Origin: Armatimonadota bacterium
Lineage (GTDB): Bacteria > Armatimonadota > Zipacnadia > Zipacnadales > UBA5352
Length of the DNA: 17,635 bases
NCBI GenBank assembly: GCA_034722055.1
Contig: JAYENL010000318.1
Location: 1-17,635 of the forward strand
Reading direction: 5' to 3'
The position numbers and the translations under genes are program-made. Below are positions 1,596 through 17,485 of the stretch, one piece after another; positions within the stretch are counted from its first letter, which is position 1; each line of letters begins with the position of its first letter. The notes beneath the pieces were generated by a model. It had not been told where the DNA came from and did no database searches. It worked only from the letters and a program-made list of their open reading frames with translations.

Positions 1596-2902
1596 GGCCT
1601 GTTCGCTCCCTCTTCCTCTGCCGGCGGATGCTGAGCTCTCGCTACGTATAGCTTGCCTGAGACAATGAGCCATATGTTGTGGTCTGGATCAACAGCGATG
1701 CTATCTGGCGCAGAAGGAATGTCCGCGAAGACTGCATCTACTTGCTCTCGGGTCCGTCGAACGACAGCTTGCGACGCGTCGTCCCAGTAGGCGATGTAGT
1801 CGCTCGGTCCGGATGCGACCGAGACCCGTCCCAACAGCCGCCTTCCTGCGACGGCGCCACGAACAGCAATGACCATGATCTCCCCGTCCGGCTGAATAAC
1901 CATTATGCCCCCGATCGAGGATGCGCCGGCCAGTCGACTGCCATCGGCGACAGAAGCCACGTGCTCAAAACCACTGAGGGCCGGCGGAGAGCCCAAGGGT
2001 CGCGGTGCGGGCCACAACGTGATTTGCGCGGCGAACCACCCGGTGAGGATCCCAATGGTCAGCATGATGAAGCCCGAGGCGATCAGCCACAGCCACTGAC
2101 GGTGCAACGAGACCCCGCCTCTCGGGCCCTCTCTGCCTTCGGCCACCTCCCCACTCTCAGGCACCTCCGTCGGGGCCGCCTCACTGATCTCGAGGGCTAC
2201 CGCGGTGATGTTGTCCTGACTGCCGCGGCGAAGCGCCTCGTCCGCAAGTCCCTCAAGACGTTCTCTCAGCGGCTGGTCGAACCTCAGCCTCGCCGCGATC
2301 TCTCTGTCATTAAGACCCCCATTAGGAGCCAGACCATCCGTGCACAGCAGCACAACATCGCCGAGCCTCAACCGCTCACGGCCGCAGGACACCTTCGGGC
2401 AGTCCAGATAGCCGACAGCTTGCTGCAACGCGCCATCGCGGTCGCGCTGATCCTCGGTGAGCAGACGAATGTGCCCGTCGCGCAGAAGGTATAGCCGGCT
2501 GTCCCCGACATGGGAGAACTCAAGGACGTCCCCCTCAACTGCGACAGCCGTCAGCGTAGTCGCAGCGGCGCCTCCTACCTGCTCTCGCAGCTCCAAGACG
2601 GCCTCCTGGGCCTCCTGAAGAGCGGTGTCCAGTGCTTCGCGCCCATCAGCACACTCGGCCAGAAAAAGGTCGGCACATCCCTGTACTGCGCCGATCGCGT
2701 GCTCCGCGGCGGCCTCCCCAAATCTGCTACCACCAACGCCATCCGCTACAGCCGCCATCATGCGAGTCCCGTGTTCTGCTCCAACCTGTTGACTGACAAG
2801 ACAGCGATCCTCATTGGACCGCCGCCTGCCCGCACGGGAGACGCTGGCTGTCCGGATAATCAAGCGGGTCGCGGTCGTCTGCTCAGCAAGGTCCCTTACC
2901 AT
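1592..2902 (-). CDS. PP2C/PPM-family Ser/Thr phosphatase (PstP/Stp1-like) with a transmembrane helix and a C-terminal extracytoplasmic domain
   Basis: PPM motifs are GRRRSNEDR, VADGVGG, ATTL, HVGDSRLY, LTEDQ, LLCTDGL and GSQDNIT. A hydrophobic segment WLWLIASGFIMLTIGILTGWFAAQITLW follows. The start is placed at ATG 2902 after an AAGGTG RBS; the ORF track gives 2941. Confidence 0.92.
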   Translation of the reverse strand: MVRDLAEQTTATRLIIRTASVSRAGRRRSNEDRCLVSQQVGAEHGTRMMAAVADGVGGSRFGEAAAEHAIGAVQGCADLFLAECADGREALDTALQEAQEAVLELREQVGGAAATTLTAVAVEGDVLEFSHVGDSRLYLLRDGHIRLLTEDQRDRDGALQQAVGYLDCPKVSCGRERLRLGDVVLLCTDGLAPNGGLNDREIAARLRFDQPLRERLEGLADEALRRGSQDNITAVALEISEAAPTEVPESGEVAEGREGPRGGVSLHRQWLWLIASGFIMLTIGILTGWFAAQITLWPAPRPLGSPPALSGFEHVASVADGSRLAGASSIGGIMVIQPDGEIMVIAVRGAVAGRRLLGRVSVASGPSDYIAYWDDASQAVVRRTREQVDAVFADIPSAPDSIAVDPDHNIWLIVSGKLYVARAQHPPAEEEGANRP

Positions 2903-3016
2903 GTCACCTTGGTTCCCGACCTGCCCGGAGCGCAAGCACAAGCAGTACTATGCTTGCCCCGAGCAATGCGAGCCACAACAGTCCACCGAGCAAGTACTCG
3001 CTGAGAGCCATGCCGT

Positions 3017-4015
3017 TCATTCCTCGGAGTAGGTGAGTACGACCTCGCCACCGAGGACGAATTCATCGCCATCGCGCAGCCGGACTTCGCCGCGTTCGGA
3101 AACGTCGATCCTCTCCTCGGTGCGTTTCAGGAAGGTGCCGTTCCGGCTTCCCGTATCCCGAAGCCAGTAGCCTCCTGGTCCCGGTGCCACCTCTGCGTGC
3201 AGATTGGAGACATCAGCAGCGTAAGACGGTATTTGTATCTCACAGCTGGCATCCCTTCCGATTCGCCAGCTACGGTCGTTACTGAGCTGCTGCTCGATTG
3301 GTTCTGTCAGGCCGCTTGCGGATCGGAGCACGGCATTGACGGGCAGCAGTCTGTCGAACGTCAGCCGAACTGAACCAAGCTGGATCTCGTCCCCATATTG
3401 CAGCTTCGTGTCTGCAGAGACTCGTTCCGTATTGACCCACGTCCCGTTCGTGCTGCCGAGGTCCTCTATTCGGAAGTCGTGATGACCTACCATCCATATT
3501 CGCGCGTGTCTGCGTGAGACATCGCCGGAGGGGTTGGGTACAAGGACTACGTACTCCGTCGTCTCCATATCAAACGCCAACGCCGGTTCATTACTTCCTG
3601 CACACAGCTTGGTGTCTCCCGGTATCTCCACTCGGCTGTCGCCATCTTCGAAGAGCAGGGCTGCCTCGAGTCTGGGCTTGGTCGCACTTACGTCTCCCAG
3701 ATAGCCTTTGACATCCAACTCGTCGCTGTCTGAGATGCGTCGTATGTGTACTTCCAGCGGGCCAGCGAACTCGTACCCTTCCTCCTCTGCTCGATCCGTG
3801 AGGCGCTCTTTGATCTGTTCGACCGTTGGCAGTGCCTCATACTTCCTTTCTCCGGCGTGGATCACATAGATGCTATGAACGCGCTCGCCCCCGTACTTGT
3901 CGCTGCTGGCGATCATGGCGTCTTCAACAGCATTCATCACGGCTTGCCAGTTATCGTGATCGAAGATCTTGCGAAACTCCTCCCCAAACCGGCGGCTGAA
4001 GTCCCTGAGTGACAA
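3017..4015 (-). CDS. FhaA-like protein: N-terminal DUF3662-like domain plus two FHA domains
   Basis: FHA motifs are VSRRHARI...DLGSTNGTWVN and WRIGRD...VSNLHAEV...DTGSRNGTFL. The N-terminal LTDRAEEEGYEFAGPLEV resembles the FhaA N-domain. The TTG start has a strong AGGAGG RBS. Confidence 0.88.
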   Translation of the reverse strand: MSLRDFSRRFGEEFRKIFDHDNWQAVMNAVEDAMIASSDKYGGERVHSIYVIHAGERKYEALPTVEQIKERLTDRAEEEGYEFAGPLEVHIRRISDSDELDVKGYLGDVSATKPRLEAALLFEDGDSRVEIPGDTKLCAGSNEPALAFDMETTEYVVLVPNPSGDVSRRHARIWMVGHHDFRIEDLGSTNGTWVNTERVSADTKLQYGDEIQLGSVRLTFDRLLPVNAVLRSASGLTEPIEQQLSNDRSWRIGRDASCEIQIPSYAADVSNLHAEVAPGPGGYWLRDTGSRNGTFLKRTEERIDVSERGEVRLRDGDEFVLGGEVVLTYSEE

Positions 4016-4036
4016 GAAGCAACACCTCCTCCGGCT

Positions 4037-6766
4037 TCACTCGTCGCTTAGGGCGTTCTCGACCAGCCTGCGAGCAATCGGGCCGGCGCTCCGGCTGCCC
4101 CATCCCCCGTTCTCGACGATGACCGCGAAAGCTACCTCAGGCCTGCGGTACGGTGCGAAACCGGCAAACCAAGAGTGCGGCTGTAAGCCGGCCCCAAGCT
4201 GAGCCGTGCCTGTCTTCCCCGCTACGTCGTACCCCAGGCCGCTGAACACGCCGCGCCCCGTTCCTTCCTCCGCAGCGTTACGGAGCATGCCCGCGAGCGT
4301 GCGCGCCGTGTTCATTGACATCGCGCTTGTCATCGAGCTTCGTTCATCAGAGAGCCAGACCGGCTCGGGCATCTTGCCCCCGTTCGCTACCGCTGCCATG
4401 AAGCGCGCCATGAATAGCGGCGTTACCAGCAGATGTCCCTGACCGTAGCCGACATCGGGCAAGTTCTGAGCCAGTCTCATCCGATCCATGCCACGCTCCA
4501 ACCCCAGAGAGCTGTGGCAATAGGTCGCGATGGCATCGGGGCCAAGCTCCAGGGCAAGCTGGGCGAAATAGACATTGCAGGACACACGTAGGGCCTCGCC
4601 AAGGTCCACTCGGCCATGGGGCCTTTGCCCCTCGAGGTCGTGAATCCCTTCTCTTGCGAACCGGATACCATTGTACTCCCAGGTGGCCCTGGGTATCACG
4701 TGGCTGCAGTGGAACACAGGTGACAGACCGGACTCGAGAGCCGCAGCGGCCACGACCGGTTTGAACGCGGAACCCGGGGCGTAGAGCCCGTGAGTCGCTC
4801 GGTTAACCAGAGGGGCGTCCTCTTCGTCCACGCGCAGGCGGCACCACGTTTCATCGTTGAGCGCATTCGGATCGAATGAGGGCGCAGTCGCTGCCACAAG
4901 TACTTCACCAGTGCGGGAGTCTAGTAGGACGGCCGCTCCTGCGCCCGAACTGCTACGCCGAAGCAATTCATAAGCCTGCTGCTGCAAATCGGCGTCAATA
5001 GCGAGCTTGACTCGACGCGCGCCTGGCCGCCAACCTAGCGGCTTGCCGTAGCCGCGCAGCACGCGCAACCTATCTCTCGGATTACCAATCCCCGTGAGGC
5101 ACCTATCATGTGTCTTCTCAACTCCCTGCGGACCACCCAGACGCTGCGGCGCAACGTAGCCGACCACATGAACTGCTGCCGGTCCGTAGGGATAGACCCG
5201 CCCGCGACCATTGCTCTCTCGGGCCAGTGCTCTGCCGCGCCGATCGACAATGGGGGCCCGCTTGAGCCCTTGTGTAACGATGTGGAGTCGTGGGTTCGCC
5301 ACCGGCCGCGTAACACCGTCTGCCTGTGGACCGCGCCACGAACGGAGGGCGACCTCATCGGCACTCAGCGTTTGGAGATCGAGTGTGCGAGCCATGACAA
5401 TCACAAGGGCCCCGAGAAAGAGCCATCGCGTTACACGGATGCTACGCAGCCAATGATGATCGGTTGGCGCAGTTGAGCTTCGCCCAATGGAGATCAGCAC
5501 TCCCAGCGCGAGTCCAGTCGCCACGATCGAGGAGTTGCCGCGTGATACCAGTGGCAACGTGATACCGGTTAGTGGCAGCAGGCCCGTGTTCCCTGCCATG
5601 ATGACTATGGTCTGCAGGCCGACGGCGCATGATATGCCGTACGCGACCAAGCGGAGGAACCGAGACCGCTCACTTGCAGCGATCGCCAGTCCGCCGAGCA
5701 CAATAGCCGCAATGCCTGCGAAAAGTGCGGATGTGCCTGCCATCCCAAGCTGCTCAGCCACCGCTGCAAATGCCATGTCGTTCTCAGACCGCGCAACGAG
5801 CTCAGGCCAACCCCTGCCAGGCCCAAAACCGCGCACTCCGCCTGAGGCAATCGCCCAAAGGGACTGGGCTACATGCACGCCGTACGGGTGCGAACTCTCC
5901 CATGGTGTCAGCCACATGTCAATCCGTTCCGCGATCCTCGCGAACATGGTGTGACCGGCTGCGTAGTATGCGAGCCACCCAGCGCCGCCGACAATGCCGA
6001 AACTGGCCAGTGCCCAAGCCCAGACTCCCGTGTCTGCGGCAAGCATGGCCCCTGCAAGACCAACCAGCATGATTGGCGGGCCCAGGTCCCGTGCCAGGAG
6101 GAGCAAGCCGACTGTAGCGGCTACCCCCACGAGCAAAGGAAGGACAACAGGTCCGCGGGGAAGATGGATCAACCGACCTACGATGCGCCGAGGGCGCAGC
6201 GCTCGGAAACGGTTCCCGGCAAGAGCACAGTAGCCCGCCATGAATCCGATGACCAGGAGCCTGACGAACTCGGCCGGCTGAATGCCCATGAGCGCCAGCC
6301 TGGTACTCCCGGGTCCTGTGCCCGCTACAGCAAGAGCACCAACGATGAACACCGCGCCCAGCATCATCATCGGCCAGTAGTGAGTCCAGCGTGCGGTCAG
6401 CAGCCGAGCCCCCATGGCGCCCGCAATGATCGCAAGAGGAAGACCGGTAAAGAAGCTCCCCCGCAAGCTTACGGGGACCGAGGACATAAAGCGCGCCTGC
6501 ACTATCGCGCCGCACGCCATTACAGCCGTGGCACCGAGCAGCACGACCTGGCCTGATCTGTTGTCCTCCACAATCAGTTTGTTGTGGAGCGCTCCCAGCG
6601 CCACGACGCTTGCCAGTAGTCCCGCGATGCGCACCGAGTTGCCCGTCTCAGAGCCGTCCCACGCGAGGGCGACGCCACCGAGACAGACCAGCAGCAGAAT
6701 AACCCCAGTCGCCCTTTGGGTAGAGCGCCAGATGACCTCGTATCTGTCACCATATACTGGCTGCAA
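4037..6766 (-). CDS. SEDS glycosyltransferase (RodA/FtsW/SpoVE) fused to a class B penicillin-binding transpeptidase (PbpA-like)
   Basis: The N-terminal half is multi-TM with the SEDS motifs IQPAEF, RDLG, AIASGG..GFG, ENDMAFAAVAEQLG and PLTGITLPLVS. The C-terminal half has the transpeptidase motifs SxxK (PGSAFK), SxN (SCN) and KTG (GKTGTAQ), plus HSWF. It is one continuous 909-aa ORF. Confidence 0.93.
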   Translation of the reverse strand: MQPVYGDRYEVIWRSTQRATGVILLLVCLGGVALAWDGSETGNSVRIAGLLASVVALGALHNKLIVEDNRSGQVVLLGATAVMACGAIVQARFMSSVPVSLRGSFFTGLPLAIIAGAMGARLLTARWTHYWPMMMLGAVFIVGALAVAGTGPGSTRLALMGIQPAEFVRLLVIGFMAGYCALAGNRFRALRPRRIVGRLIHLPRGPVVLPLLVGVAATVGLLLLARDLGPPIMLVGLAGAMLAADTGVWAWALASFGIVGGAGWLAYYAAGHTMFARIAERIDMWLTPWESSHPYGVHVAQSLWAIASGGVRGFGPGRGWPELVARSENDMAFAAVAEQLGMAGTSALFAGIAAIVLGGLAIAASERSRFLRLVAYGISCAVGLQTIVIMAGNTGLLPLTGITLPLVSRGNSSIVATGLALGVLISIGRSSTAPTDHHWLRSIRVTRWLFLGALVIVMARTLDLQTLSADEVALRSWRGPQADGVTRPVANPRLHIVTQGLKRAPIVDRRGRALARESNGRGRVYPYGPAAVHVVGYVAPQRLGGPQGVEKTHDRCLTGIGNPRDRLRVLRGYGKPLGWRPGARRVKLAIDADLQQQAYELLRRSSSGAGAAVLLDSRTGEVLVAATAPSFDPNALNDETWCRLRVDEEDAPLVNRATHGLYAPGSAFKPVVAAAALESGLSPVFHCSHVIPRATWEYNGIRFAREGIHDLEGQRPHGRVDLGEALRVSCNVYFAQLALELGPDAIATYCHSSLGLERGMDRMRLAQNLPDVGYGQGHLLVTPLFMARFMAAVANGGKMPEPVWLSDERSSMTSAMSMNTARTLAGMLRNAAEEGTGRGVFSGLGYDVAGKTGTAQLGAGLQPHSWFAGFAPYRRPEVAFAVIVENGGWGSRSAGPIARRLVENALSDE

Positions 6767-7119: not shown

Positions 7120-8433
7120 TTGAGGGCCAATAGACTCACCGTGAGAGGGATACTGCTTAGTCCCGCCTTCCTACACGGGGCGCGCGACGGGGGCCAGAAC
7201 GCTGAGTTTCGGCCAGCATCACTACGCGGGCTCGTGCGCTACTGGTTCCGGGCCATCGCCGCCGGCCTAACCTCTGAAGTCGACGCCATCCATCTGGCAG
7301 AGGCCGATGTCTTCGGAGGCATCACCCCTCGACCGAAGCGCGGGGTCCTGATCCGCCCCGACGAAGTCCCCTGCAACACTGCCCAAAGCCTCAGTCTCAA
7401 TCGAAGAAACCACTCTGGCGCCATCTATCTCGCCTACGGTCGCGAGAGGGGCGCCAGCAGCCATCACCTCACGCCTGGGCAAGGCTTCTCTGTTACGCTG
7501 CTAACCCGCCCTGACGCCGATCCAGATTGCGGGCGCCTTCTGGCGGCCGGATACGCAATGTGGGTCGCGTCAGCTCTGGGAGGGCTGGGCGGCCGGAGCC
7601 GGCACGGCTTCGGCGCGTTCCTGCTGCAGGACTGGCAGTTGAGCGGAGAGAGCAGTTCCCTTACAGAACCACCGCTGCTGGTTAACTGCGCTCGCGAACG
7701 TCTTGGCCCGGCGATCTCCGAGGGCCTCGATGCAGCGAGAGCGGCCATCAGATCAGTGCTGCCTGGAGAGCTGGCTGGAGGGACTGTCGACCATATGCCG
7801 CATCTCACAGCTTCGACGCCCATCTACGCCTGGGATGGGGGCTGGCGTGCGTCGCCGGAGGCGTGGAGGGACGCGTTGAGCTCGGTGGGGGAGGGCATTC
7901 AGAAGTATCTTCGGGGCGAGTACTCGGGAATCGTCCCGAACCGGGCCTGCAGGTTCAATAGCCAATCGAATCAGATCAAGGAATGGCTGTGGGGTGGGCC
8001 GCAGCCTGGCAGTGAGATTGATGATCTCGCGTTCGGTCTTCCCAGAGGCTTCTTCTCTAACAGCGTACGAGAGCAATGGCGACAGAAGCTGCTAGAGGAG
8101 GGCGAGACAGAGAAGAGGGCGAAGAGGATTTCCGCCAAGCGGGCACGCACGACCTTCGACCCCATCATATTGGGGGAGCCGGCGAGGCGGGCTTCGCCGC
8201 TCGTGATCAGTTTGGTCGGCTTCGGGGGCTCCCACGATCCGAGGATCACGGCGATACTCACCCCGATGCGGGGGGCCTTCCTGCCTGATACCTGCTCCAT
8301 CCATGCAAAGCGCACAGAACCGCCGCAGACGACTCAGGCAGACGTCCCGACTGAGGATGACTTTAAAGCGCTGGCCAGTGAGTTAATGAAATGTCTGCCG
8401 GTCAGCATCATAGCAGGGGGCGGGCCAAGTTGA
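7120..8433 (+). CDS. cmr1: Type III-B CRISPR RAMP protein Cmr1
   Basis: Motifs are LSPAFLHGA, EFRPASLRGLVRYWFRA, EADVFGG, the glycine-rich loop LGGLGGRSRHGFG, FGLP and RRASPL. The TTG start has a GGGGGA RBS. Confidence 0.92.
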   Translation: MRANRLTVRGILLSPAFLHGARDGGQNAEFRPASLRGLVRYWFRAIAAGLTSEVDAIHLAEADVFGGITPRPKRGVLIRPDEVPCNTAQSLSLNRRNHSGAIYLAYGRERGASSHHLTPGQGFSVTLLTRPDADPDCGRLLAAGYAMWVASALGGLGGRSRHGFGAFLLQDWQLSGESSSLTEPPLLVNCARERLGPAISEGLDAARAAIRSVLPGELAGGTVDHMPHLTASTPIYAWDGGWRASPEAWRDALSSVGEGIQKYLRGEYSGIVPNRACRFNSQSNQIKEWLWGGPQPGSEIDDLAFGLPRGFFSNSVREQWRQKLLEEGETEKRAKRISAKRARTTFDPIILGEPARRASPLVISLVGFGGSHDPRITAILTPMRGAFLPDTCSIHAKRTEPPQTTQADVPTEDDFKALASELMKCLPVSIIAGGGPS

Positions 8434-11369
8434 GCGACTTCAGCTTGTGGCAGCGCAAGATCGCCGCGTGGCTGCACGACTTGCCGGATAAGGTGCTCGA
8501 CGTACAAGGGCACCCGGCAAAGGCGAAGGAAGCCGTGCGCCGTGTCACCAAGCTGGATAATGCCGATGTCTCGAGTCTGCAGGAGATCGTCAAACCCAGT
8601 GACCACATCGCATCTGCGGCCGACCGCGAGTGTATCGACAGGCCCGCGAGCGGCTATAGGCCGGTAGTGCAGTTCGACGGCTGGGTGTATCACCCGCTGT
8701 CGGGGGAGCCCTACAAAGTCGTCGACGATGTCAATGGGTTCGCTCAAGCTGCGCCGGCCATGACCGACGTCATCGACGATCTGCTAGGCAGGGCCCGAGA
8801 AGAAGCCAAGACCGCCTACTGGGTCCTCTGGCGGCTGATGCAGGAGCGGCTCGCAGCGAGAGACGCCAGTTGGGATTACCTGCCAGCCACGACCCGGATG
8901 CCCGACATCCCGATCTGGGCGCACATGGACGCCGCGAGCGCTGTGGAGGGAGCCCTACCACGTCCGGCGCACCTGATATTTCAGATTGGGCCGGTGCAGC
9001 AGTTCATAGCTCCATCGCGACGGAGCCAGGACTTCTGGATGGGGAGCTACCTCATCTCGTTCCTTGCGTGGCATGCGATGCGCCCCATTGTCACGAAGCT
9101 GGGCCCTGACGCGATCCTGTATCCGGACCTGCGTGGACAGCCGCTGCTCGATGCCGACCCGGAGCTGGGCCAACACTGGACTGATCGGCTGTCCACCGAT
9201 CGGCGCCTCCGAAGCATCGCCTCTCTGCCCCACCGATTCGTAGCACTTGTGCCGACTGAGGACGCGGAGGACCTTGCTCACGAGTGTCAGGACGCTGTGG
9301 ACAACACATGGGAGGCGGCGGCATCCGACGTCGCGAGATCGCTCCATAGATGGTCTGGCTCAATGTGGTCGCCTGATCAGCAGTGGGAAGAGCAGATCAG
9401 TGGTTTCTGGCGCACATACTATGCGATCCACCCGTGGCCCGAGCCTCCGGACGGGGGGGGCCTGGAGTGGGCCAGACTGGCGAAGGCGGAGTATGACGGG
9501 CTCTTCCCGGATCCCTCTGACGATCAGTTCGACGAGGCATTCAAGTTCTTCACTGGCGATCGCGCGCGGAGCAGTCAGGTTCAGATCGGCACCGCCTACA
9601 GTAGGCTCTACGGACTTGCCGACCGGTTCTCGGAGAGCGTGAAGGCCACGCGGCACTTCGAGCGTGCCGATCAGGAGGGGGAGCTATGCACCTGTTGCGG
9701 GCAGCGGTCAGTACTCGGGAGCGGTCCGACAGCCTCAAGGCCACAAGTGCGGAAGCTCTGGGGGAGCATCGCTGAATCGCTTCAGTCGCAGGGACGGCAT
9801 CGGGAAGTCAAGCCGGACGGAAAGGAGCGACTCTGCGCTGTCTGTGCCGTTAAGCGCTTTGCCCAGTCCGAGAGCCAGGTAGTCGATGCCTGTATTGATG
9901 GAGAGGAGCGTTTCCCTTCAACCAGCACCATCGCAGCGGCCGACTTCGTCACGGAGCTGATAGCCACCGCGACCGAGATCGCCGATGGTCCTGAGCCCCA
10001 AGGCCATCCACTTCTCGAAGCGCTGGCGGCGTTCGTCGCGAAGCTCGATGCATCCGCGTTCCCCGATACTGCGAAGCACAGCAGGTTGCGACGCCACAAG
10101 ATGGCGATTGAGGCCATCGGGGACGATGGTCTGCGGAGAAGCCTGCATACGCTCCTCAACTACGACGGCGATGTCTTCTTCCCACACTTCTTCGTCAAGG
10201 AACGTCATCTGAACGACTTCGGAGCACAGGCGAACGCTTGGCTGGGTGACTTGCCCGGATTCCGCCAGGCGCAGGCCACGCTTCTGGAGGCCGCAACGAG
10301 CGCAAACATACGCGCCCCGGGCAGGTACTTCGCTGTCCTCGCGTTCGACGGCGATGAAGTTGGGAAGTGGCTTTCCGGGACGAATGCCCCGGAGCTTCAA
10401 GACATCATCGCCGAAGAGATTGTGGGGCAGGACTGGTTCGCTGGAGAATGGGATGAAGTGCTCGACCACAGGCGCCTGGTCTGCCCCTCATTCCACAAGG
10501 CTATCAGCGCGGCACTGCGCGATTTTGCATTGCACCTTGCACCGCAGATTGTTGAGGAGCAGTACCCTGGCAAGCTGGTCTATGCGGGGGGCGACGATCT
10601 TCTCGCCCTGGTACCGGCACGACGAGCTCTGGACCTTGCGCACGCCCTTCGCTTTGCCTTTACCGGACAGGGCCATTGGAGCGATGGCACATGGATTCCT
10701 GATCCTGACCGCGCTGACGGCTTCGTGCGGAAGGCTGGACGCCGCATTCTCTGTCTAATGGGCAGCGAGGCCTCGGCAAGTGTTGGTATCGCCGTAGTTC
10801 ATCACTCCAGCCCACTCATCCGGGCCATCAGAACTGCTCAGTCAGAATGCAAGACTGCTGCAAAGGAAGACTATGGTCGCAACGCCGTGGCAATTTCGGT
10901 GCTGAAGCGAGGCGGAGCGCCAGTCCGGGCAGGTGGTCACTTCGTATGCGACGACACCCATCTCGTCCCCGCCATCTCCAAGGCCATTGATCTCTTCGAA
11001 GACCAGCACGTGGGGTCGCTGTCTCGCGGACTGCCATCGCGGCTGCAGTCCGAGGCCCAGCTCATTATCGGTCTGACACCCGAAGCGCAGGAGGCCGAGT
11101 TCACCCGCGTACTTGACCGACAGATCGCTCTGCCTCGACCGCGCCGTGGTGCGACGAAGGAGGAGAAAACGCAACTGGCGCGGTTGCAGCAGAAGAAGAC
11201 TGATCTCCGGGATACGTGTTTGAGCCTCATGAGGGCATGGCGGAAGCAGCCTGGCCAATCGCAATTAGTGCCAGGTGACGCCGGTCTCGCGCGTCCCGCA
11301 GCACCGTACGAGGAACTCGTAAACTGGCTGCTGATCGCGCGGTTCCTGACGGTTGGGGGCGAGGAGTAA
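8430..11369 (+). CDS. cas10: Type III-B CRISPR large subunit Cas10/Cmr2
   Basis: The N-terminus has KIAAWLHD. Further motifs are IGPVQQFIAPSRRSQDFWMGSYLIS, Zn finger CTCC...LCAVC, FPSTSTIA, FDGDEVGK and the palm motif YAGGDD (GGDD at 10587-10598). The start is set at TTG 8430, overlapping the cmr1 TGA; the ORF track gives 8391. Confidence 0.95.
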   Translation: MSDFSLWQRKIAAWLHDLPDKVLDVQGHPAKAKEAVRRVTKLDNADVSSLQEIVKPSDHIASAADRECIDRPASGYRPVVQFDGWVYHPLSGEPYKVVDDVNGFAQAAPAMTDVIDDLLGRAREEAKTAYWVLWRLMQERLAARDASWDYLPATTRMPDIPIWAHMDAASAVEGALPRPAHLIFQIGPVQQFIAPSRRSQDFWMGSYLISFLAWHAMRPIVTKLGPDAILYPDLRGQPLLDADPELGQHWTDRLSTDRRLRSIASLPHRFVALVPTEDAEDLAHECQDAVDNTWEAAASDVARSLHRWSGSMWSPDQQWEEQISGFWRTYYAIHPWPEPPDGGGLEWARLAKAEYDGLFPDPSDDQFDEAFKFFTGDRARSSQVQIGTAYSRLYGLADRFSESVKATRHFERADQEGELCTCCGQRSVLGSGPTASRPQVRKLWGSIAESLQSQGRHREVKPDGKERLCAVCAVKRFAQSESQVVDACIDGEERFPSTSTIAAADFVTELIATATEIADGPEPQGHPLLEALAAFVAKLDASAFPDTAKHSRLRRHKMAIEAIGDDGLRRSLHTLLNYDGDVFFPHFFVKERHLNDFGAQANAWLGDLPGFRQAQATLLEAATSANIRAPGRYFAVLAFDGDEVGKWLSGTNAPELQDIIAEEIVGQDWFAGEWDEVLDHRRLVCPSFHKAISAALRDFALHLAPQIVEEQYPGKLVYAGGDDLLALVPARRALDLAHALRFAFTGQGHWSDGTWIPDPDRADGFVRKAGRRILCLMGSEASASVGIAVVHHSSPLIRAIRTAQSECKTAAKEDYGRNAVAISVLKRGGAPVRAGGHFVCDDTHLVPAISKAIDLFEDQHVGSLSRGLPSRLQSEAQLIIGLTPEAQEAEFTRVLDRQIALPRPRRGATKEEKTQLARLQQKKTDLRDTCLSLMRAWRKQPGQSQLVPGDAGLARPAAPYEELVNWLLIARFLTVGGEE

Positions 11370-11371
11370 GC

Positions 11372-12565
11372 ATGGTCCTTTTCATCGAGGCCGTGGACAA
11401 CTGGTTCTTCGGCGACGGCAGACCATTCGAGGCCGGCGAAGAGCACGTAGCCGAATCACTCTTCCCGCCGCTGCCCCGGACGGTCATCGGAGCGCTTCGC
11501 GGCAAACTCCTCCGGGCCATGGGAACGGACATTGGTGAGTACTCTGGCCTGAAGCGGGATGGCCAGGTGCCCGATGCGCTCAATGACGTCGTGTACGCCA
11601 TTGGCGCGCCTTGGGAGACGGGGCCAAGCGACCTCTCGATACGTGGCCCGTTCATAGCACGTTGGGAACCGGATGGAGAGCTCGTCGAGCCCTTCTTCCC
11701 CCTGCCCGCTGATGTACTGCGCGACAAGGACGACGGGAGCTGCCATCTGTTGCGACCACTGCGGCCACTGGCGAGCAACGTCGACGTAGAGACGAGTCTG
11801 CCAGCTCCTCTCCATCCTCTTTGGCTCACCAATACGGGGGCCTTTGAACGTCCCGAGCGTGCCTCCAGTCTGCTGACGGGGGCTGATCTGCAGTCAGTTC
11901 TCGGCGGTCACCCCCCGGGTCAGATCGTTGAGAACCAACACCTCTACTCCGTCAAGCCGAGAGCGGGGATAGCGCTCAAGGCGGATCAGAAGATCACCAG
12001 AGACGGTCATCTTTACGAGATAGGTGTTGTGACTCCGCGAGTGGACACGGATGCAGGCAGCCATGCTGTCGTCGGACTGGTGATCGACGTCGCGGGGCTC
12101 GACCCGTCCGGTTACCGGAACGTCATCCAACTTGGCGGAGAGAGCCGCTGGGCCGTGTTGCGCAACGCCGTTACCGTGAAGTGGCCGGAGCCGCCAGAAC
12201 ACCCGTTATGCCGGTTCAGCATCTACCTCGCTTCGCCCGTCGTCCTTTCCCACGGCTGGTATCCGGAGTGGCTCGAGTGCTCTTCCGATGTCCTTTCGGG
12301 CGACATGCCCGGCATAGGCAAAGTGAGGCTGATCTCAGTCGCTCTGAGCGGGGGCGTATCAGTCGGCGGCTACAACGTGGCGAAGGGGCGGTCGCGGGGG
12401 AGTAGCAGTGCCGTGCCGGCAGGAACGGTCTACTTCTTCGAGGCACTCGAAAAGATCACACGTGAGAAACTCGGCGAGCTGCACGGGAGTCTCTTCGGCG
12501 ATGAGAGTCCGAGCGATACGCCTGGCATGGGACTGAGCTTCGTGGGGAGTTGGGACTATGTCTGA
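11372..12565 (+). CDS. cmr3: Type III-B CRISPR protein Cmr3 (Cas5 group)
   Basis: Motifs are DNWFFGDGRPF, FPPLPRTVIGALR, LGGESR, AVPAGTVYFF and the terminal GMGL. GAGGAG precedes the ATG. Confidence 0.93.
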   Translation: MVLFIEAVDNWFFGDGRPFEAGEEHVAESLFPPLPRTVIGALRGKLLRAMGTDIGEYSGLKRDGQVPDALNDVVYAIGAPWETGPSDLSIRGPFIARWEPDGELVEPFFPLPADVLRDKDDGSCHLLRPLRPLASNVDVETSLPAPLHPLWLTNTGAFERPERASSLLTGADLQSVLGGHPPGQIVENQHLYSVKPRAGIALKADQKITRDGHLYEIGVVTPRVDTDAGSHAVVGLVIDVAGLDPSGYRNVIQLGGESRWAVLRNAVTVKWPEPPEHPLCRFSIYLASPVVLSHGWYPEWLECSSDVLSGDMPGIGKVRLISVALSGGVSVGGYNVAKGRSRGSSSAVPAGTVYFFEALEKITREKLGELHGSLFGDESPSDTPGMGLSFVGSWDYV

Positions 12566-13508
12566 TGACGTGATGGACATCCTGTTCCTCTACGCTGAGG
12601 AACCAGTGCACGTCGGCGTTGGGCAGGGACTGGGAGCCATCGACCAGCCGATCCAGAGGGAAGTGTATACGAACTTCCCGGTGCTTCACGGATCGAGTGT
12701 GCGCGGGGCATTGCGCGACCTCGTTAAGCAGCACGATAAAGACTTGGCCTTGTGGTTGTTTGGGAATGAGCCGGGACAACAGCCAATGTGGCAGGGTGCA
12801 GTGAGCCCGCACGATGCTCGCATCATCCTCTTCCCGGTACAATCACTGATGGGCGGCTTCGCCTGGACGACGTGCCCGGCGGCATTGGCTGTCCTCCGCC
12901 GCAACCTCGAAGTGTGCGAGAAGCGGCCCTGCTGGGATGTACCTGACCCCGTAGAGGATGGTGAGTGCCTCGTCCCGGAGAGCGGCGAGGATACTCCGTC
13001 TAATGTCGTCTTCCGATCCGATGATGCCTCCGAGCATGTTCAGTTGATCAGATATGACTTCACCGTATCCCGACATGACAAGTTCGATCTCACAGACCTC
13101 TCTCGGTGGCTCGTGCACAGTGCGATGCCTCAGGGCGACGAGTTCGATTTCTGGCGCAGTAAGCTCCAGACTTCTCTTGTCGTGCTATCAGATGCCGATT
13201 TCAAGTGGTTCGTAGAGAATGCTACCCAGACGATGACCCGTGTCCGACTCACGGCAGAGAAGACTGTCGATGTCGGTGGGCTCTGGAGCGAGGAGGCGCT
13301 GCCGCCCGAGACCCTCCTGCACTCGCCGGTTGCCGCACGCTCGGTGTTGACCAATGACAGCGGCGCTCGGGACACGCCTAAGACCACCAAACCGGCTAAG
13401 GATGCGATGGCTGAAGCTTGGAAGACAGTCCGAGGACGGATGAACATCGGCGGGACAGAGAGTATAGGCAGGGGACGTGTAGCGGTCAGGTGGTTGAAGG
13501 GAGAGTGA
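12558..13508 (+). CDS. cmr4: Type III-B CRISPR RAMP Cmr4 (Cas7 group, target RNA endoribonuclease)
   Basis: Motifs are PVHVGVG, GAIDQPIQRE (catalytic Asp position retained), GSSVRGALR, DARIILFPVQS, LWSEEALPPETL and IGGTESIGRG. Confidence 0.94.
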   Translation: MSDDVMDILFLYAEEPVHVGVGQGLGAIDQPIQREVYTNFPVLHGSSVRGALRDLVKQHDKDLALWLFGNEPGQQPMWQGAVSPHDARIILFPVQSLMGGFAWTTCPAALAVLRRNLEVCEKRPCWDVPDPVEDGECLVPESGEDTPSNVVFRSDDASEHVQLIRYDFTVSRHDKFDLTDLSRWLVHSAMPQGDEFDFWRSKLQTSLVVLSDADFKWFVENATQTMTRVRLTAEKTVDVGGLWSEEALPPETLLHSPVAARSVLTNDSGARDTPKTTKPAKDAMAEAWKTVRGRMNIGGTESIGRGRVAVRWLKGE

Positions 13509-13512
13509 GTTG

Positions 13513-14022
13513 ATGCCGGGAGTGGTTGACCGGGATGTCGTGCGGGCGCAGAAAGCGTATGAAGCTGTTGTCAATACCAAGGGCAAAGCGTCCTCTGACA
13601 GCGAGTCGGAGTTCCGGTCCCAGTACACGGGCCTCCCCTCGCTGCTCCACAACCACGGCCTGTTCCAGACAGTCGCGTTCCTTATGTCCCGCGAGGACGA
13701 CTGCAAGCCTCAGTACCAGCGTGCGTGGGAGGACCTTATGGCCGGTACCCTGGACGGCTGCTCCTCACTCTCCGGGGCACCGACAGACCTCTGCCGCGGG
13801 GCTGTGCTGCACTGGATGGCGAAGCTCGACTCTCTTCAGCATCGGCTCCTGTCTAGCGAAGCCTTGGCATACTCCGCGTGGCTGAAGCGTTGGGCTGAAG
13901 TGCTCCTCGAGGCGCGCAAAGATGCCGACCGACGCGGCGAAGTCGCCGATCAGAGCACAGTGCGCGCGGATGATGAGCAGGCAGAGACCGAAGCCCAGGG
14001 GGGAAGTAGCGATGGGCAATGA
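13513..14022 (+). CDS. cmr5: Type III-B CRISPR small subunit Cmr5 (Cas11)
   Basis: RAQKAY, YTGLPSLLHNHGLFQTVAFL and WLKRWAE match the Cmr5 pattern, and the gene lies between cmr4 and cmr6. The start is ATG 13513 or TTG 13510. Confidence 0.88.
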   Translation: MPGVVDRDVVRAQKAYEAVVNTKGKASSDSESEFRSQYTGLPSLLHNHGLFQTVAFLMSREDDCKPQYQRAWEDLMAGTLDGCSSLSGAPTDLCRGAVLHWMAKLDSLQHRLLSSEALAYSAWLKRWAEVLLEARKDADRRGEVADQSTVRADDEQAETEAQGGSSDGQ

Positions 14023-14932
14023 CCGCCGCGAACGACCCGGTCGTGGGCATAAGGAGAGGTTCGTTCCGCTTCCCTCTGATACGCTGCGGATGTGGGAGCA
14101 GTGGTGCCGGGCAAAGCGGAAGTCCCCCAACTTGCACCTGCTTGTGAACCAGTACGGTGCGTTCGAAAGTGGCCCTGAGCGCAGGGAGGAGCACAAGAAG
14201 GGAGAGCTTTCTGATCTGCTGCGCAAGTGGGATAGCGGAAAGGCCGCAAAGATCGCTCAGGCCGTGCTTCGGCGCCGGGAAGCCTATCTGGAGGAGGTCT
14301 GTGCACACCGGGGGTGTGCCGCCGTTCGCCTGAAGGCGACCAGCTGTTGGCGCGCGGTCACCGGAATGGGCGATGAGAGCGTCTTCAAGACAGCTCTTAC
14401 GCTCGACGAACTCGGAGGCTTTCCCGTTGTGCGCGGCAGCGCCATCAAAGGCATGACGCGCCACTACGTGGAGCACTGGCTTACTGGCGAGGAAGCCGTG
14501 GCGGATGAAGCCATTGATAAGGTCTTCGGCAAGCCCCCTGACCCTCCCGAGGATCTGGGCAGCATTGGCGCCGTTCAGTTTCTCGGCGGAATACCTGAAG
14601 CTCCGATCGGCGTCGAGCTTGACATAATGACTCCCCACTACCCGGACTGGTATCAGAAAGGGCCAACGGACACTCCCTCGGACTGGTGCAACCCGACACA
14701 GATCTACTTCCTCGCCATTCCCGCCGGACAGCAGTTCGTGTTCGACCTCGTTGGGGAGCCGGCTGCGGTGGGAAGGGCCAGGGAATGGGTCCGCGATGCG
14801 CTCGAGACAATCGGTGTCGGCGCTAAGACCGCTGCCGGTTACGGCTACTTCACTGTCCAGCCTGAGGGCATTCAGGGCCTTTCGCCTGGCCAGGCGTCCT
14901 GGCATGTCGTGCCCAGTGGCAATCCCCGGTGA
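14012..14932 (+). CDS. cmr6: Type III-B CRISPR RAMP Cmr6
   Basis: Motifs are VTGMG, GFPVVRGSAIKG, DIMTPHYPDWY, DWCNPTQIYFL and the glycine loop GVGAKTAAGYG. The start is placed at ATG 14012 after GGGGGAAG; the ORF track gives 13922. Confidence 0.93.
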   Translation: MGNDRRERPGRGHKERFVPLPSDTLRMWEQWCRAKRKSPNLHLLVNQYGAFESGPERREEHKKGELSDLLRKWDSGKAAKIAQAVLRRREAYLEEVCAHRGCAAVRLKATSCWRAVTGMGDESVFKTALTLDELGGFPVVRGSAIKGMTRHYVEHWLTGEEAVADEAIDKVFGKPPDPPEDLGSIGAVQFLGGIPEAPIGVELDIMTPHYPDWYQKGPTDTPSDWCNPTQIYFLAIPAGQQFVFDLVGEPAAVGRAREWVRDALETIGVGAKTAAGYGYFTVQPEGIQGLSPGQASWHVVPSGNPR

Positions 14933-14935
14933 GCC

Positions 14936-16171
14936 ATGACCCCACAGGATTTGCTTGATCGCCTCCGCCGCATGTCCGTGAACCATGTGCTCGCCGATGC
15001 TGACTCAATACCGGTCCATCCGTGTGATCAGCACTGGCCCGCCGCTGTTCTTGCCGTCGCATGGGACGCCATCAGGCCGCAACATCACAGTGTCGTCGCC
15101 TACCAGATCGCGCGTCTTATGGACCTCTCCGGACACAGCTCTGACGCTCTCGCCTCACTCAGAGTCCTCTCTGAAGCGTTCCCTGGGATGAAGTGCATCG
15201 AGGATCGCGTCAGATGGCTCGAGCGTGAGACCCAATGGGCTTCTGAGGGCGTTCGTGATGTACCCCTCAGGTCAGCTTCCCCGGCACAACCCGTCGATCA
15301 AGCACCATTCGACGCCGTTCGCCCCCGGGCCGATAGATGCTCCATTATGAGGGACGCATACGAGCGGTTGCGATCGCCGGAGAACCTCTGGGCCGCTTGG
15401 GTCAAAGTGTCCGCAAACCGCGGCGCCCCTGGTGCTGACGGCATCAGCGTGGAGCAGTTCGCAGGCGAAGTCATCGATCACTTCCAGGCGATCGGACGCG
15501 AGTTGGCAGATGAAGCGTACACGTTTGGCCCACCGGTCCGCTTCACGGTTCAGAAGTCAAGCGGGGGAAGACGTGAACTCGTCGTTCCGTGCGTACGCGA
15601 CCGTGTTGTATTGACGACGGCCGCGCGCGTCCTCCAGGATCATCTGGATCCTCAGTTCTCTCCGTACAGCTTTGGGTATCGGCCAGGACGCTCAGTTGGC
15701 GATGCTCTACTCGCGGCAGAGCGTTTTATTCGTCAGGGAAGGCGTTGGATCGTGGACGCAGACATCAGCGCCTGCTTTGATAGCATCCACCACGCAATCC
15801 TGCTTGATGCTCTCTCAGCCGCAGTCGACGATCACAGGTTTCTGCGGTTCGTGTCTCAGGCACTGCAGGTGTTCGCGCCGCCGGACACGGAAGGTGTCGG
15901 AATCCCGCAGGGAAGCCCGCTATCGCCAGTGCTGTGCAATCTTTACCTCGACATCTTTGACAGTGCCGCCGCCCACGGCGGGTATCCGGTCGTCCGTTAC
16001 GCTGATGACTTCCTCCTGTTCGAGCGGTCGCGTCAGCAGGCATCCAGCGCGCTGAGATGGTGTACTCATCTCTTGAGTGAGCGGCTTCGGCTCAAGCTCA
16101 ACACACAGAAGACTCGGGTCGTAGGGCCCGGACAGCCTCTTCTGTTCTTGGGCGGGGAGCTAATCGTGTAG
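14936..16171 (+). CDS. CRISPR-associated reverse transcriptase (group II intron-like RT0-7, no maturase/thumb) with an N-terminal extension of about 137 aa containing a TPR-like motif
   Basis: RT motifs are AWVKVSANRGAPGADG (RT0), RELVVPCVRDRVV, SFGYRPGRS, WIVDADISACFDSI, GIPQGSPLSPVLCNLYL, VRYADDF (YADD at 15998-16009), LNTQKT and FLG, followed directly by the stop. The gene is immediately upstream of cas1. Confidence 0.93.
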   Translation: MTPQDLLDRLRRMSVNHVLADADSIPVHPCDQHWPAAVLAVAWDAIRPQHHSVVAYQIARLMDLSGHSSDALASLRVLSEAFPGMKCIEDRVRWLERETQWASEGVRDVPLRSASPAQPVDQAPFDAVRPRADRCSIMRDAYERLRSPENLWAAWVKVSANRGAPGADGISVEQFAGEVIDHFQAIGRELADEAYTFGPPVRFTVQKSSGGRRELVVPCVRDRVVLTTAARVLQDHLDPQFSPYSFGYRPGRSVGDALLAAERFIRQGRRWIVDADISACFDSIHHAILLDALSAAVDDHRFLRFVSQALQVFAPPDTEGVGIPQGSPLSPVLCNLYLDIFDSAAAHGGYPVVRYADDFLLFERSRQQASSALRWCTHLLSERLRLKLNTQKTRVVGPGQPLLFLGGELIV

Positions 16172-16186: not shown

Positions 16187-17188
16187 ATGCTCAATGGATA
16201 TGTCGCCGAGCAAGGGGCTGTTGTCAAGCTGCGCGGAGAGCGCCTCCTAGTATCGCTCTCCGGAGCGCTCATCGACGAGTTGCGCATTGGTGAGCTGGGG
16301 ACACTGGTCATCATCGGTAATGTGACACTAACAACACCTGCAATCGCGGCGCTCCTCGAGAACCAGGTCCCTGTCGCATTCCTCTCCCTGGGCGGGCAAT
16401 TCAGGGGACGATTGGAGCCCCCGCTATCGACGTCCGTTGCCGTGCGACGCGCCCAGTTCCTGGCCCTAGAAGACGCCGATTTCGCGCTTGCGCTGGCACG
16501 ACAGAGCGTCGCCGCGAAGCTCCTGAACTGCAGAGCGTTGCTGCTCAGGTCTCGGCGCCGACGCCAGTTGCCCGAGGCAGGGGCAGCACCGACTGTGCTG
16601 CGCACATCCGCAGAGCTCGCCAGCCACGCGCGAAGCGTTGAAGAGGTGAGAGGCATCGAAGGCCGGGCTTCGGCGGCCTACTTCGAGGCATTCGGCGCTC
16701 TGTTGGCGGATCCATGGGAATTCAATGGGCGAAGTCGTCGGCCACCCCGTGACGAACCCAACGCGCTGCTCAGCCTGGGCTACACGCTACTGCTGACAAG
16801 AGTGATGGCCGGTGTTCAGATAGCTGGTCTGAACGCTGGCGCCGGCTTCCTGCACACTTCTCATCACGGCAGTCCCGCTCTTGCGCTCGATCTCATGGAA
16901 GAGTTCCGCTCCACCATCGTAGATCAGGTGGTACTGCAGGCCCTCAATGGCGGGATCGTGGCGCCTGAGCACTTCGAGACCACTGAGAAGCTGCCGCATG
17001 CGCTAACCCGCGCTGGCTTTGAACGCTTCGTTGGCGAGTTCGAGCGAAGATTGCAGGAGGGGTTCACCCCGAAGGGTCGCTCCACGCCGACATCCTATGG
17101 GGACTTTATCTGGAGCCAGGCATTGGCTCTGCGGCGAGCGTTCGAGAACCATGATCCGGATGAATACCAGCCGCATGTAAGGCGATGA
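16187..17188 (+). CDS. cas1: CRISPR-associated endonuclease/integrase Cas1
   Basis: Motifs are YVAEQGA, RGIEGRASAAYF, RRPPRDEPNALLSLGY, GFLH and LALDLMEEFR, so the catalytic E/H/D-E residues are present. Confidence 0.96.
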   Translation: MLNGYVAEQGAVVKLRGERLLVSLSGALIDELRIGELGTLVIIGNVTLTTPAIAALLENQVPVAFLSLGGQFRGRLEPPLSTSVAVRRAQFLALEDADFALALARQSVAAKLLNCRALLLRSRRRRQLPEAGAAPTVLRTSAELASHARSVEEVRGIEGRASAAYFEAFGALLADPWEFNGRSRRPPRDEPNALLSLGYTLLLTRVMAGVQIAGLNAGAGFLHTSHHGSPALALDLMEEFRSTIVDQVVLQALNGGIVAPEHFETTEKLPHALTRAGFERFVGEFERRLQEGFTPKGRSTPTSYGDFIWSQALALRRAFENHDPDEYQPHVRR

Positions 17189-17194
17189 AGGCCC

Positions 17195-17485
17195 ATGCGA
17201 GACGACAGATTCCTCTATGTTGTCGCTTATGATGTTCCGGATGATCGACGCAGAGCCAGGTTGGCGGCTTCGCTGCAGAACTTCATGCCACGCGTTCAGT
17301 ATAGCCTCTTCGAAGGGCCTCTGACCGACGTACTGATCAAGCGGGTGAGGCATCGCATTGATGAGATTTGTGACCCGCATGAGGATGCGGTGCGGATCTA
17401 TCGCCTCTGCTCCCAGTGCGAAGAGATGATTGAGGCAATCGGCGGCAAGCCGCCGCCCGATCGAGCCTCGTTCGTTATCATATGA
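17195..17485 (+). CDS. cas2: CRISPR-associated endoribonuclease Cas2
   Basis: The 96-aa protein has YVVAYDVPDDRRR, RVQYSLFEG and DAVRIYRLC..C, and follows cas1. Confidence 0.96.
   Translation: MRDDRFLYVVAYDVPDDRRRARLAASLQNFMPRVQYSLFEGPLTDVLIKRVRHRIDEICDPHEDAVRIYRLCSQCEEMIEAIGGKPPPDRASFVII

Follow-up and report, generated by a model that had tools for sequence, protein, structure and literature searches.

The reverse transcriptase (RT) encoded in a type III-B CRISPR locus of an Armatimonadota bacterium carries, ahead of its catalytic core, a real, conserved and folded domain (aa 1–104, hereafter the N-domain), which is predicted from co-folding to dock on helices 119–157 of the neighbouring Cas1. 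We consider it somewhat probable that this TPR-like domain acts as a non-covalent Cas1 clamp which replaces the RT-Cas1 fusion and so would serve the capture of RNA-derived spacers for the Cmr complex. The window, i.e., the whole stretch of DNA analysed (17,635 nt), is contig C318 in its entirety and has a GC content of 62%; the source genome measures 6.1 Mb with 68% GC.

The type III-B locus and the RT core

The genes of the locus follow one another on the forward strand in the order cmr1, cas10/cmr2, cmr3, cmr4, cmr5, cmr6, RT, cas1, and cas2 (Table 1), and neither cas6 nor a CRISPR array was found within the window. The RT frame is open for 411 aa from an ATG located 3 nt past the cmr6 stop; the sequence GGTGAG just 5′ of this start was judged against the Shine-Dalgarno (SD) consensus, and no SD-like motif precedes the internal ATG at 15347. 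As the RT stop (16169–16171) has a second stop behind it and the cas1 ATG follows at 16187, RT and Cas1 are separate frames and not an RT-Cas1 fusion; this junction is also present without indels in other sequencing runs. The RT gene thus adjoins cas1 and cas2, unfused, in a type III locus, the arrangement by which stand-alone CRISPR-associated RTs (CARTs) are recognized, and judged from its sequence the protein would be a stand-alone type III CART, RT activity and uptake of RNA-derived spacers being predicted properties. A promoter and terminator scan remained at chance level.

Table 1. Features of the CRISPR locus and of its RT, with positions in the window.
Feature	Position	Strand	Evidence
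Type III-B effector operon cmr1, cas10/cmr2 (GGDD), cmr3, cmr4, cmr5, cmr6	7120..14932	+	Gene calls and profile matches
CRISPR-associated RT, stand-alone, 411 aa, with a TPR-like domain at the N-terminus	14936..16171	+	Open frame, profiles
All-helical N-domain, aa 1–104; predicted Cas1-binding module	14936..15247	+	AlphaFold2; conserved in P0003/P0004/P0005; co-fold
One TPR-like helical hairpin (aa 52–85) and capping helix (aa 86–103)	15089..15244	+	Alignment, VIA-align
Pro/Ala-rich disordered linker, aa 105–137, variable in length and sequence	15248..15346	+	pLDDT < 50 for aa 104–135
RT core RT0–RT7 without thumb	15347..16171	+	Profiles, structure and sequence matches; ATG 15347 starts one database call (274 aa)
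YADD active-site motif, aa 355–358	15998..16009	+	Invariant in 4/4 RTs
Cas1, member of a tight five-cluster clade (57–62% identity; next matches 46% or less)	16187..17188	+	Profiles, search, tree
Predicted docking surface on Cas1, aa 119–157	16541..16657	+	Co-fold; P135, R139, E143 invariant in 5/5 clade members
Cas2	17195..17485	+	Profile matches
Probable CRISPR leader, cut off by the contig end	17509..17635	+	Identical 127 nt end contig C81; array link inferred

Profile matches to the RT begin only at aa 141–149 and end at 405–409 (143–409 for PADLOC PDLC01136), with FLG at aa 404–406 and the stop five residues later, which bears out the claim of the initial annotation that an RT0–7 core with YADD ends right after FLG. 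All three relatives described below are stand-alone RTs which likewise end within 4–11 aa after FLG. As the TIGR04416 match stops at position 265 of the 353 in the profile, having begun at position 2 (240 bits, below the cut-off of 300), a thumb/X region is absent, and a missing thumb is described as normal for CRISPR RTs (PMC8102632). RVT_1 is the only Pfam family in the protein, which consists entirely of N-domain, linker, and RT and has no AEP primase-polymerase domain. The best sequence and structure matches of the core are to group II intron RT/maturases (6AR1), and its identity to RT-Cas1 and Cas6-RT-Cas1 fusions reaches 45%. A group II intron remnant left in place was rejected: RTs of group II introns possess a thumb/X (GIIM) and an intron RNA, whereas the window RT has neither, there being no GIIM, no Rfam match and hence no intron RNA in the window, and a TIGR04416 score below cut-off. 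Both the RT core and Cas1 look intact.

The last 127 nt of the window also form the end of contig C81 and their depth is doubled in one run (100 vs 44), which fits the probable existence of two leader copies. Two array ends with one common repeat of 35–36 nt were located on contigs C283 and C39, and we infer that the leader in the window is linked to them. Past the array trailer, C283 (L140, 350–3813) carries a second Cmr1-like RAMP gene, cas6, and a tyrosine integrase, whilst on C39 the array end abuts a serine recombinase with LuxR HTH domains; these surroundings suggest a mobile island. Seven spacer stretches, compared with the source genome only, gave one match, 24 nt exact, between C283 spacer 102–135 and C89 247–270.

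Several further features of the assembly were observed. Ahead of the second leader copy, C81 (L143) carries at 944–2358 an ORF of 413 aa without a Pfam match, which by eye we take to be PIN-like. C302, C245, C311, and C282 carry more CRISPR systems: cas4-cas1 within a type I-C system, a Csm-like type III operon whose repeat differs, and another cas6. A second RT of about 1000 aa with HEAT repeats lies between integrase-like genes on the reverse strand of C185 (L144, 4638–7655) and resembles Abi/UG defence RTs. Within the window, positions 129–6766 of the reverse strand hold a divergent cluster of an FtsW-PBP fusion, a double-FHA protein, a PP2C phosphatase, and a Ser/Thr kinase, the last of these joined with domains of the TPR, treble-clef zinc finger, and cold-shock types; the cluster shares its low-GC contig with the CRISPR operon.

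Conservation and fold of the N-domain

The first 137 aa of the RT match no Pfam or PADLOC family. A search for homologues with the same extension, suggested in the initial annotation, was productive: among the 120 matches listed (336 passed of 8000 candidates scored), the N-terminus is covered, the window's own record apart, by three relatives, P0003, P0004, and P0005. The same three came out of 8000 candidates when longer proteins were searched with a profile, and aa 1–137 compared with 1.84 billion representatives gave a single match, P0003. Identity to the window protein over aa 52–104 is 23/53, 23/53, and 22/51 (42–43%), with 16/50 and 9/50 over aa 1–51; the linker has 8/28, 3/16, and 4/27 and the core about 51%. 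The homologues retain the domain while the linker drifts. None of 2000 shuffles reached the local alignment scores of the N-domain against each of the three relatives (140, 100, and 96; best shuffle 56–67), and 13 of its residues are invariant in all four RTs: A55, Y56, Q57, A59, R60, M62, D63, G66, A71, L75, R91, E98, and W101.

RTs with this domain are rare, to judge from the four RT clusters which the sequence searches returned. The N-domain was absent from the loci of a genome scan (21), two metagenome scans (0 and 80), and a viral scan (0), in which its profile was run over 7017 ORFs and proteins; the same profile gave weak matches only in 67 order-level and 401 phylum-level genomes, none of them a true relative, and the full RT searched in 101 genomes found no relative with an N-domain.

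The AlphaFold2 model of aa 1–104, built on a four-row alignment, has a pLDDT of 88.4 and a pTM of 0.83 and consists of helices at residues 3–14, 19–24, 36–44, 52–64, 68–81, and 86–103, with no strands. The full-length model reaches a pTM of 0.64, aa 104–135 being disordered and of low confidence. The helical, TPR-like module which had been proposed for aa 1–137 is therefore present, but its folded part is confined to aa 1–104 and the rest is linker. When aa 52–85 are set against the TPR consensus, from which the signature positions were taken, the earlier fit stands at positions 8, 11, 15, 20, and 24 (A59, M62, G66, A71, and L75), which are invariant in 4/4, and at position 7, hydrophobic in 4/4; position 32 is Pro in 2/4, and position 4 is Ala instead of W/L/Y.

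The Pfam TPR models gave no match for any of the four N-domains, so the likeness to TPRs rests on fold and profile evidence. In the Foldseek comparison, proposed in the initial annotation, the TPR domains of Fis1, cyclophilin-40, and prolyl-hydroxylase ranked first (best E 0.07, probability 0.99), and TPR proteins, judged from their titles, make up most of the 50 VIA-align rows (best Z 8.0), among them the PP5 TPR domain at 1.2 Å over 55 residues (aa 46–103, Z 6.8); these fold-search scores lie below significance, in the range which common helical bundles reach. In 21 loci examined for their weak matches to the N-domain profile, 11 of the 14 ORFs scanned carry Pfam TPR families, multi-repeat proteins being easily matched. 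An Atlas search returned nothing at 0.9 or above, with matches at 0.88–0.89 as leads only, and no relative of the N-domain was found by sequence search of the PDB (best E 0.21). As modelled, the N-domain would comprise one divergent TPR-like repeat and a capping helix together with extra N-terminal helices.

That the N-terminus is not Cas6, as originally supposed, is upheld. A degenerate Cas6 was rejected on the grounds of the all-helical model without strands, the lack of any PADLOC family at E ≤ 0.1, and the lack of a Cas6 profile match. Among the matches listed, the fold libraries contained no Cas-related chain, a negative of limited weight. The module does occupy the place in which Cas6 may be fused, at the N-terminus of the RT, but as a separate cas6 lies beside the matching array end on C283, it is not a substitute for Cas6.

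Predicted docking on Cas1 and co-occurrence of the two proteins

Docking of the N-domain on Cas1 had been raised as one possibility among several, and it is favoured by the co-fold of the two, which scored 0.82 (runs 0.84, 0.82, and 0.79) against 0.00 for the best of three controls, the runs agreeing in at least 97% of contacts with a partner pLDDT of at least 92. Of solved complexes, 116 of 157 attain the mark used; of mismatched pairs, 2 of 215 do so. These counts apply only roughly, our own alignment having been used. Cas1 was co-folded as a monomer without Cas2 or DNA, and the controls comprised no non-cognate Cas1 and no Cmr subunit. Since nothing in the PDB is related to the N-domain by sequence, the score is unlikely to stem from recall of a solved complex.

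In the co-fold, N-domain residues 23–32, 63–68, and 94–104 contact Cas1 residues 119–157, the closest pairs including R139–E98, P135–W101, T140–D63, and E143–L64 (Cas1 residue given first). Four of the 13 invariant N-domain residues (D63, G66, E98, and W101) fall in this interface; N-domain interface residues 26–32 vary. Among 115 outgroup Cas1s, P135 occurs in 0%, E143 in 2%, and R139 in 54/115. No enrichment of conserved positions was seen at the interface, where 3/11 outgroup-variable positions are clade-invariant vs 15/66 overall, 2/32 clade-specific Cas1 positions fall among its 15 residues, and Cas1 identity within the clade is 0.55 as compared with 0.59 elsewhere. Most of the 32 clade-specific invariant Cas1 residues are found outside the patch, at aa 19–110, 225–229, and 256–332, and perhaps contact the RT core, Cas2 or the leader.

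The window Cas1 has four close clusters, after which identity drops sharply (Table 1); the clade was not found in 401 genomes. By source and longest contig, RT P0004 can be matched with Cas1 P0126 (both JGI, longest contig 33419), RT P0123 with Cas1 P0128 (both Logan, longest contig 11738), and RT P0122 with Cas1 P0245 (both JGI, longest contig 13915). These three matches come from two independent lineages and involve 2/3 RT relatives; no RT partner was found for Cas1 P0127 or P0129. As source and longest contig agree, RT and Cas1 probably travel together, and it appears that the two clades are probably co-inherited, co-location resting on matching longest-contig values in a set where only four RT clusters exist.

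In quick trees built on chosen subsets of the search matches, and hence from biased samples, the four-RT clade has a support of 99–100 and the five-Cas1 clade of 100. The latter lies in a group of unfused Cas1s (support 99), outside the main fused group of the sample, along with type I-D-like Cas1s, Cas1s beside stand-alone RTs (L036, L040, and L042), and Cas1s beside RT-TPR-primase fusions (L109 and L018). Bit scores of the window Cas1 are 211–240 against 29 unfused outgroup Cas1s and 56–166 against 33 fused ones. A broken RT-Cas1 fusion is not favoured, the window Cas1 scoring nearer the unfused Cas1s (quick trees, with deep RT branches unsettled), and a Cas1 that is simply type I-D was dropped, the group being shared by Cas1s beside other stand-alone RTs and RT-TPR-primases. 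The RT clade is placed, weakly (SH-aLRT 87, an open fork), with RT-primase fusions beside cas1. In the same phylum, FHA-RT-primase fusions (L031:1045–3771 and L025:628–2769, in G083 and G088) and an RT-primase with a hydrophobic N-terminal extension (L023:451–3075, in G089) were observed, the copies in G083 and G089 adjoining cas1; N-terminal interaction domains on CRISPR RTs thus recur in the source phylum.

A proposed clamp, its alternatives, and known systems

We propose that the end of TPR helix A, the loop between A and B, the capping helix, and a further loop (aa 23–32) would grip Cas1 helices 119–157, with a predicted E98–R139 salt bridge and W101–P135 packing holding the clamp. A flexible linker of 33–50 aa would then keep the thumbless RT near the Cas1-Cas2 integrase, the non-covalent clamp being the equivalent of the linker in RT-Cas1 fusions, and RNA would be turned into DNA or be given a DNA tail, the product being inserted as spacers that serve the Cmr complex. 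Two published findings are relevant here: in the fused enzyme, ligation of RNA depends on contact between RT and Cas1 (PMC8102632), and a TPR-bearing CRISPR polymerase binds Cas1 via a fragment which includes its TPRs (PMC8211822). The evolutionary claim that a small clade has evolved a dedicated, co-inherited docking pair, composed of a domain with a single TPR and of a Cas1 helix with P135/R139/E143, in place of fusion, is in our estimation an even bet.

There is a lesser chance, which we would put well below that of the clamp, that the domain binds Cas1 as predicted but that the RT serves DNA-side adaptation (priming, gap filling or repeat duplication) or regulates the integrase. CARTs are able to prime and extend on RNA as well as on DNA (PMC10415136), the weak placement of the RT clade beside RT-primase fusions points the same way, and the predicted patch reaches Cas1 153–157, next to the conserved E158; however, the effector is an RNA-targeting type III-B complex, type III RT fusions are described as acquiring RNA spacers, and the RT protein has no primase domain. 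It is unlikely that the Cas1 result is a false positive and that the domain instead mediates self-association of the RT or folds back on its own core as a stand-in for the thumb. The TPRs of the Marinitoga piezophila CAPP do take part in self-association (PMC8211822), and invariant Y56, Q57, R60, and R91 lie outside the predicted Cas1 interface, for which reason a second surface may exist, but the Cas1 score was strong and reproducible with controls at 0.00, and the modest full-length pTM and disordered linker give no sign of tight intramolecular packing. Docking of the RT on the Cmr complex or on a host factor, such as the divergent kinase/phosphatase/FHA module, which would link interference or signalling to adaptation, is a shade less likely again: translational coupling of the RT gene to cmr6 across the 3-nt gap, the presence of the Ser/Thr kinase, PP2C, and FHA genes on the low-GC contig of the CRISPR operon, and the FHA-RT-primase fusions beside cas1 in the source phylum are in keeping with it, whereas the co-fold passed with Cas1.

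We regard it as very improbable that the extension is a vestige or a mis-call and that the working protein starts at ATG 15347. Databases hold calls of both 411 aa and 274 aa for the window RT, the NCBI call being the shorter, one relative cluster also has a 279-aa member, and the linker has a codon score of −0.08, which is not coding-like. A Met stands at the core start in 2/4 RTs, one of them P0003, and is used by gene callers (P0002 and P0124); given the 274-aa call and the Met of P0003, a short isoform is possible. However, the identity over aa 52–104 is shared by three distant relatives, two of which, P0003 and P0004, have their initial Met aligned with ATG 14936, and the frame is open in all relatives, so that the start at 15347, which the initial annotation had named among the findings that would undo its reading, is not favoured by the sequences, nor was any of the other such findings borne out. 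The extension frame has a codon score of 0.07 vs −0.19 and −0.26 in the other forward frames (the reverse frame scores 0.10, as for cas2), the upstream side of 15347 is devoid of an SD-like motif, and the fold is confident. In a strain about 97% alike, the cmr6-RT junction and RT start are covered in a second study with no listed changes there, and in sludge runs there were 1 synonymous and 2 non-synonymous changes in the N-domain and 6 and 2 in the core, at low depth and too few to measure selection.

With the stand-alone CRISPR RTs described by Toro et al., 2018 (RT-not-fused clades 9 and 13; PMC6013744), the window RT has in common a group II-like RT0–7 with YADD and no thumb, encoded on its own immediately upstream of cas1-cas2 in a type III locus; what sets it apart is the TPR-like N-domain, 104 aa long and folded. 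The RT-Cas1 and Cas6-RT-Cas1 fusions (Thiomicrospira 7KFT/7KFU and Marinomonas MMB-1) likewise hold a thumbless RT near Cas1 through a flexible connection (PMC8102632), whereas the coupling in the window would be non-covalent and via the RT N-terminus, with no Cas6 fold and with a Cas1 that groups with unfused Cas1s (99). The nearest precedent is the TPR-CAPP of M. piezophila, in which aa 1–360 bind Cas1, TPRs next to CRISPR polymerases being already known in other arrangements (PMC8211822). TPR-CAPP and the RT-TPR-primase CART-CAPP share a TPR module on a polymerase by cas1-cas2 in type III loci, but the window protein has one divergent repeat before the RT and no primase; the TPRs of CART-CAPP follow the RT (L109) and were not matched by the window N-domain profile.

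The architecture is apparently new, all of its parts coming from known families. The four CART architectures set out in the text of PMC10415136 (CART, CART-Cas1, Cas6-CART-Cas1, and CART-CAPP) do not include a form with an N-terminal TPR, and no such stand-alone CRISPR RT was found in the literature searched, which included PMC8102632, PMC6013744, PMC6753606, PMC12669027, PMC8211822, PMC5513706, PMC8934634, PMC10828431, and PMC10415136; the term TPR is absent from the main text of PMC6753606, PMC8934634, and PMC10415136. The suggestion of a possibly undescribed RT architecture thus holds for this literature, whilst proteins of this kind may appear in the supplementary tables of RT surveys.

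In the articles searched, the systems described as acquiring spacers from RNA are RT-Cas1 fusions, and the question of how the many unfused CRISPR RTs reach the integrase is not taken up. If true, the clamp would be, within that literature, the first defined mechanism recruiting an unfused CRISPR RT to Cas1-Cas2, and fusion and docking would be alternative answers to the same coupling problem. As a test case the locus is compact, the residues concerned being named for either partner (E98/W101/D63 vs R139/P135/E143). Were the clamp real, recording tools could have their RT and integrase kept apart or exchanged, and the domain would provide a portable, switchable adaptor for RNA-recording integrases. 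The clamp would also hint that other stand-alone RTs use short tethers of their own: those at L036:798–1895, L040:3693–4631, and L042:278–1180, all directly upstream of cas1, share a conserved, aromatic/acidic C-terminal tail of 33–35 aa, which is possibly another Cas1 tether.
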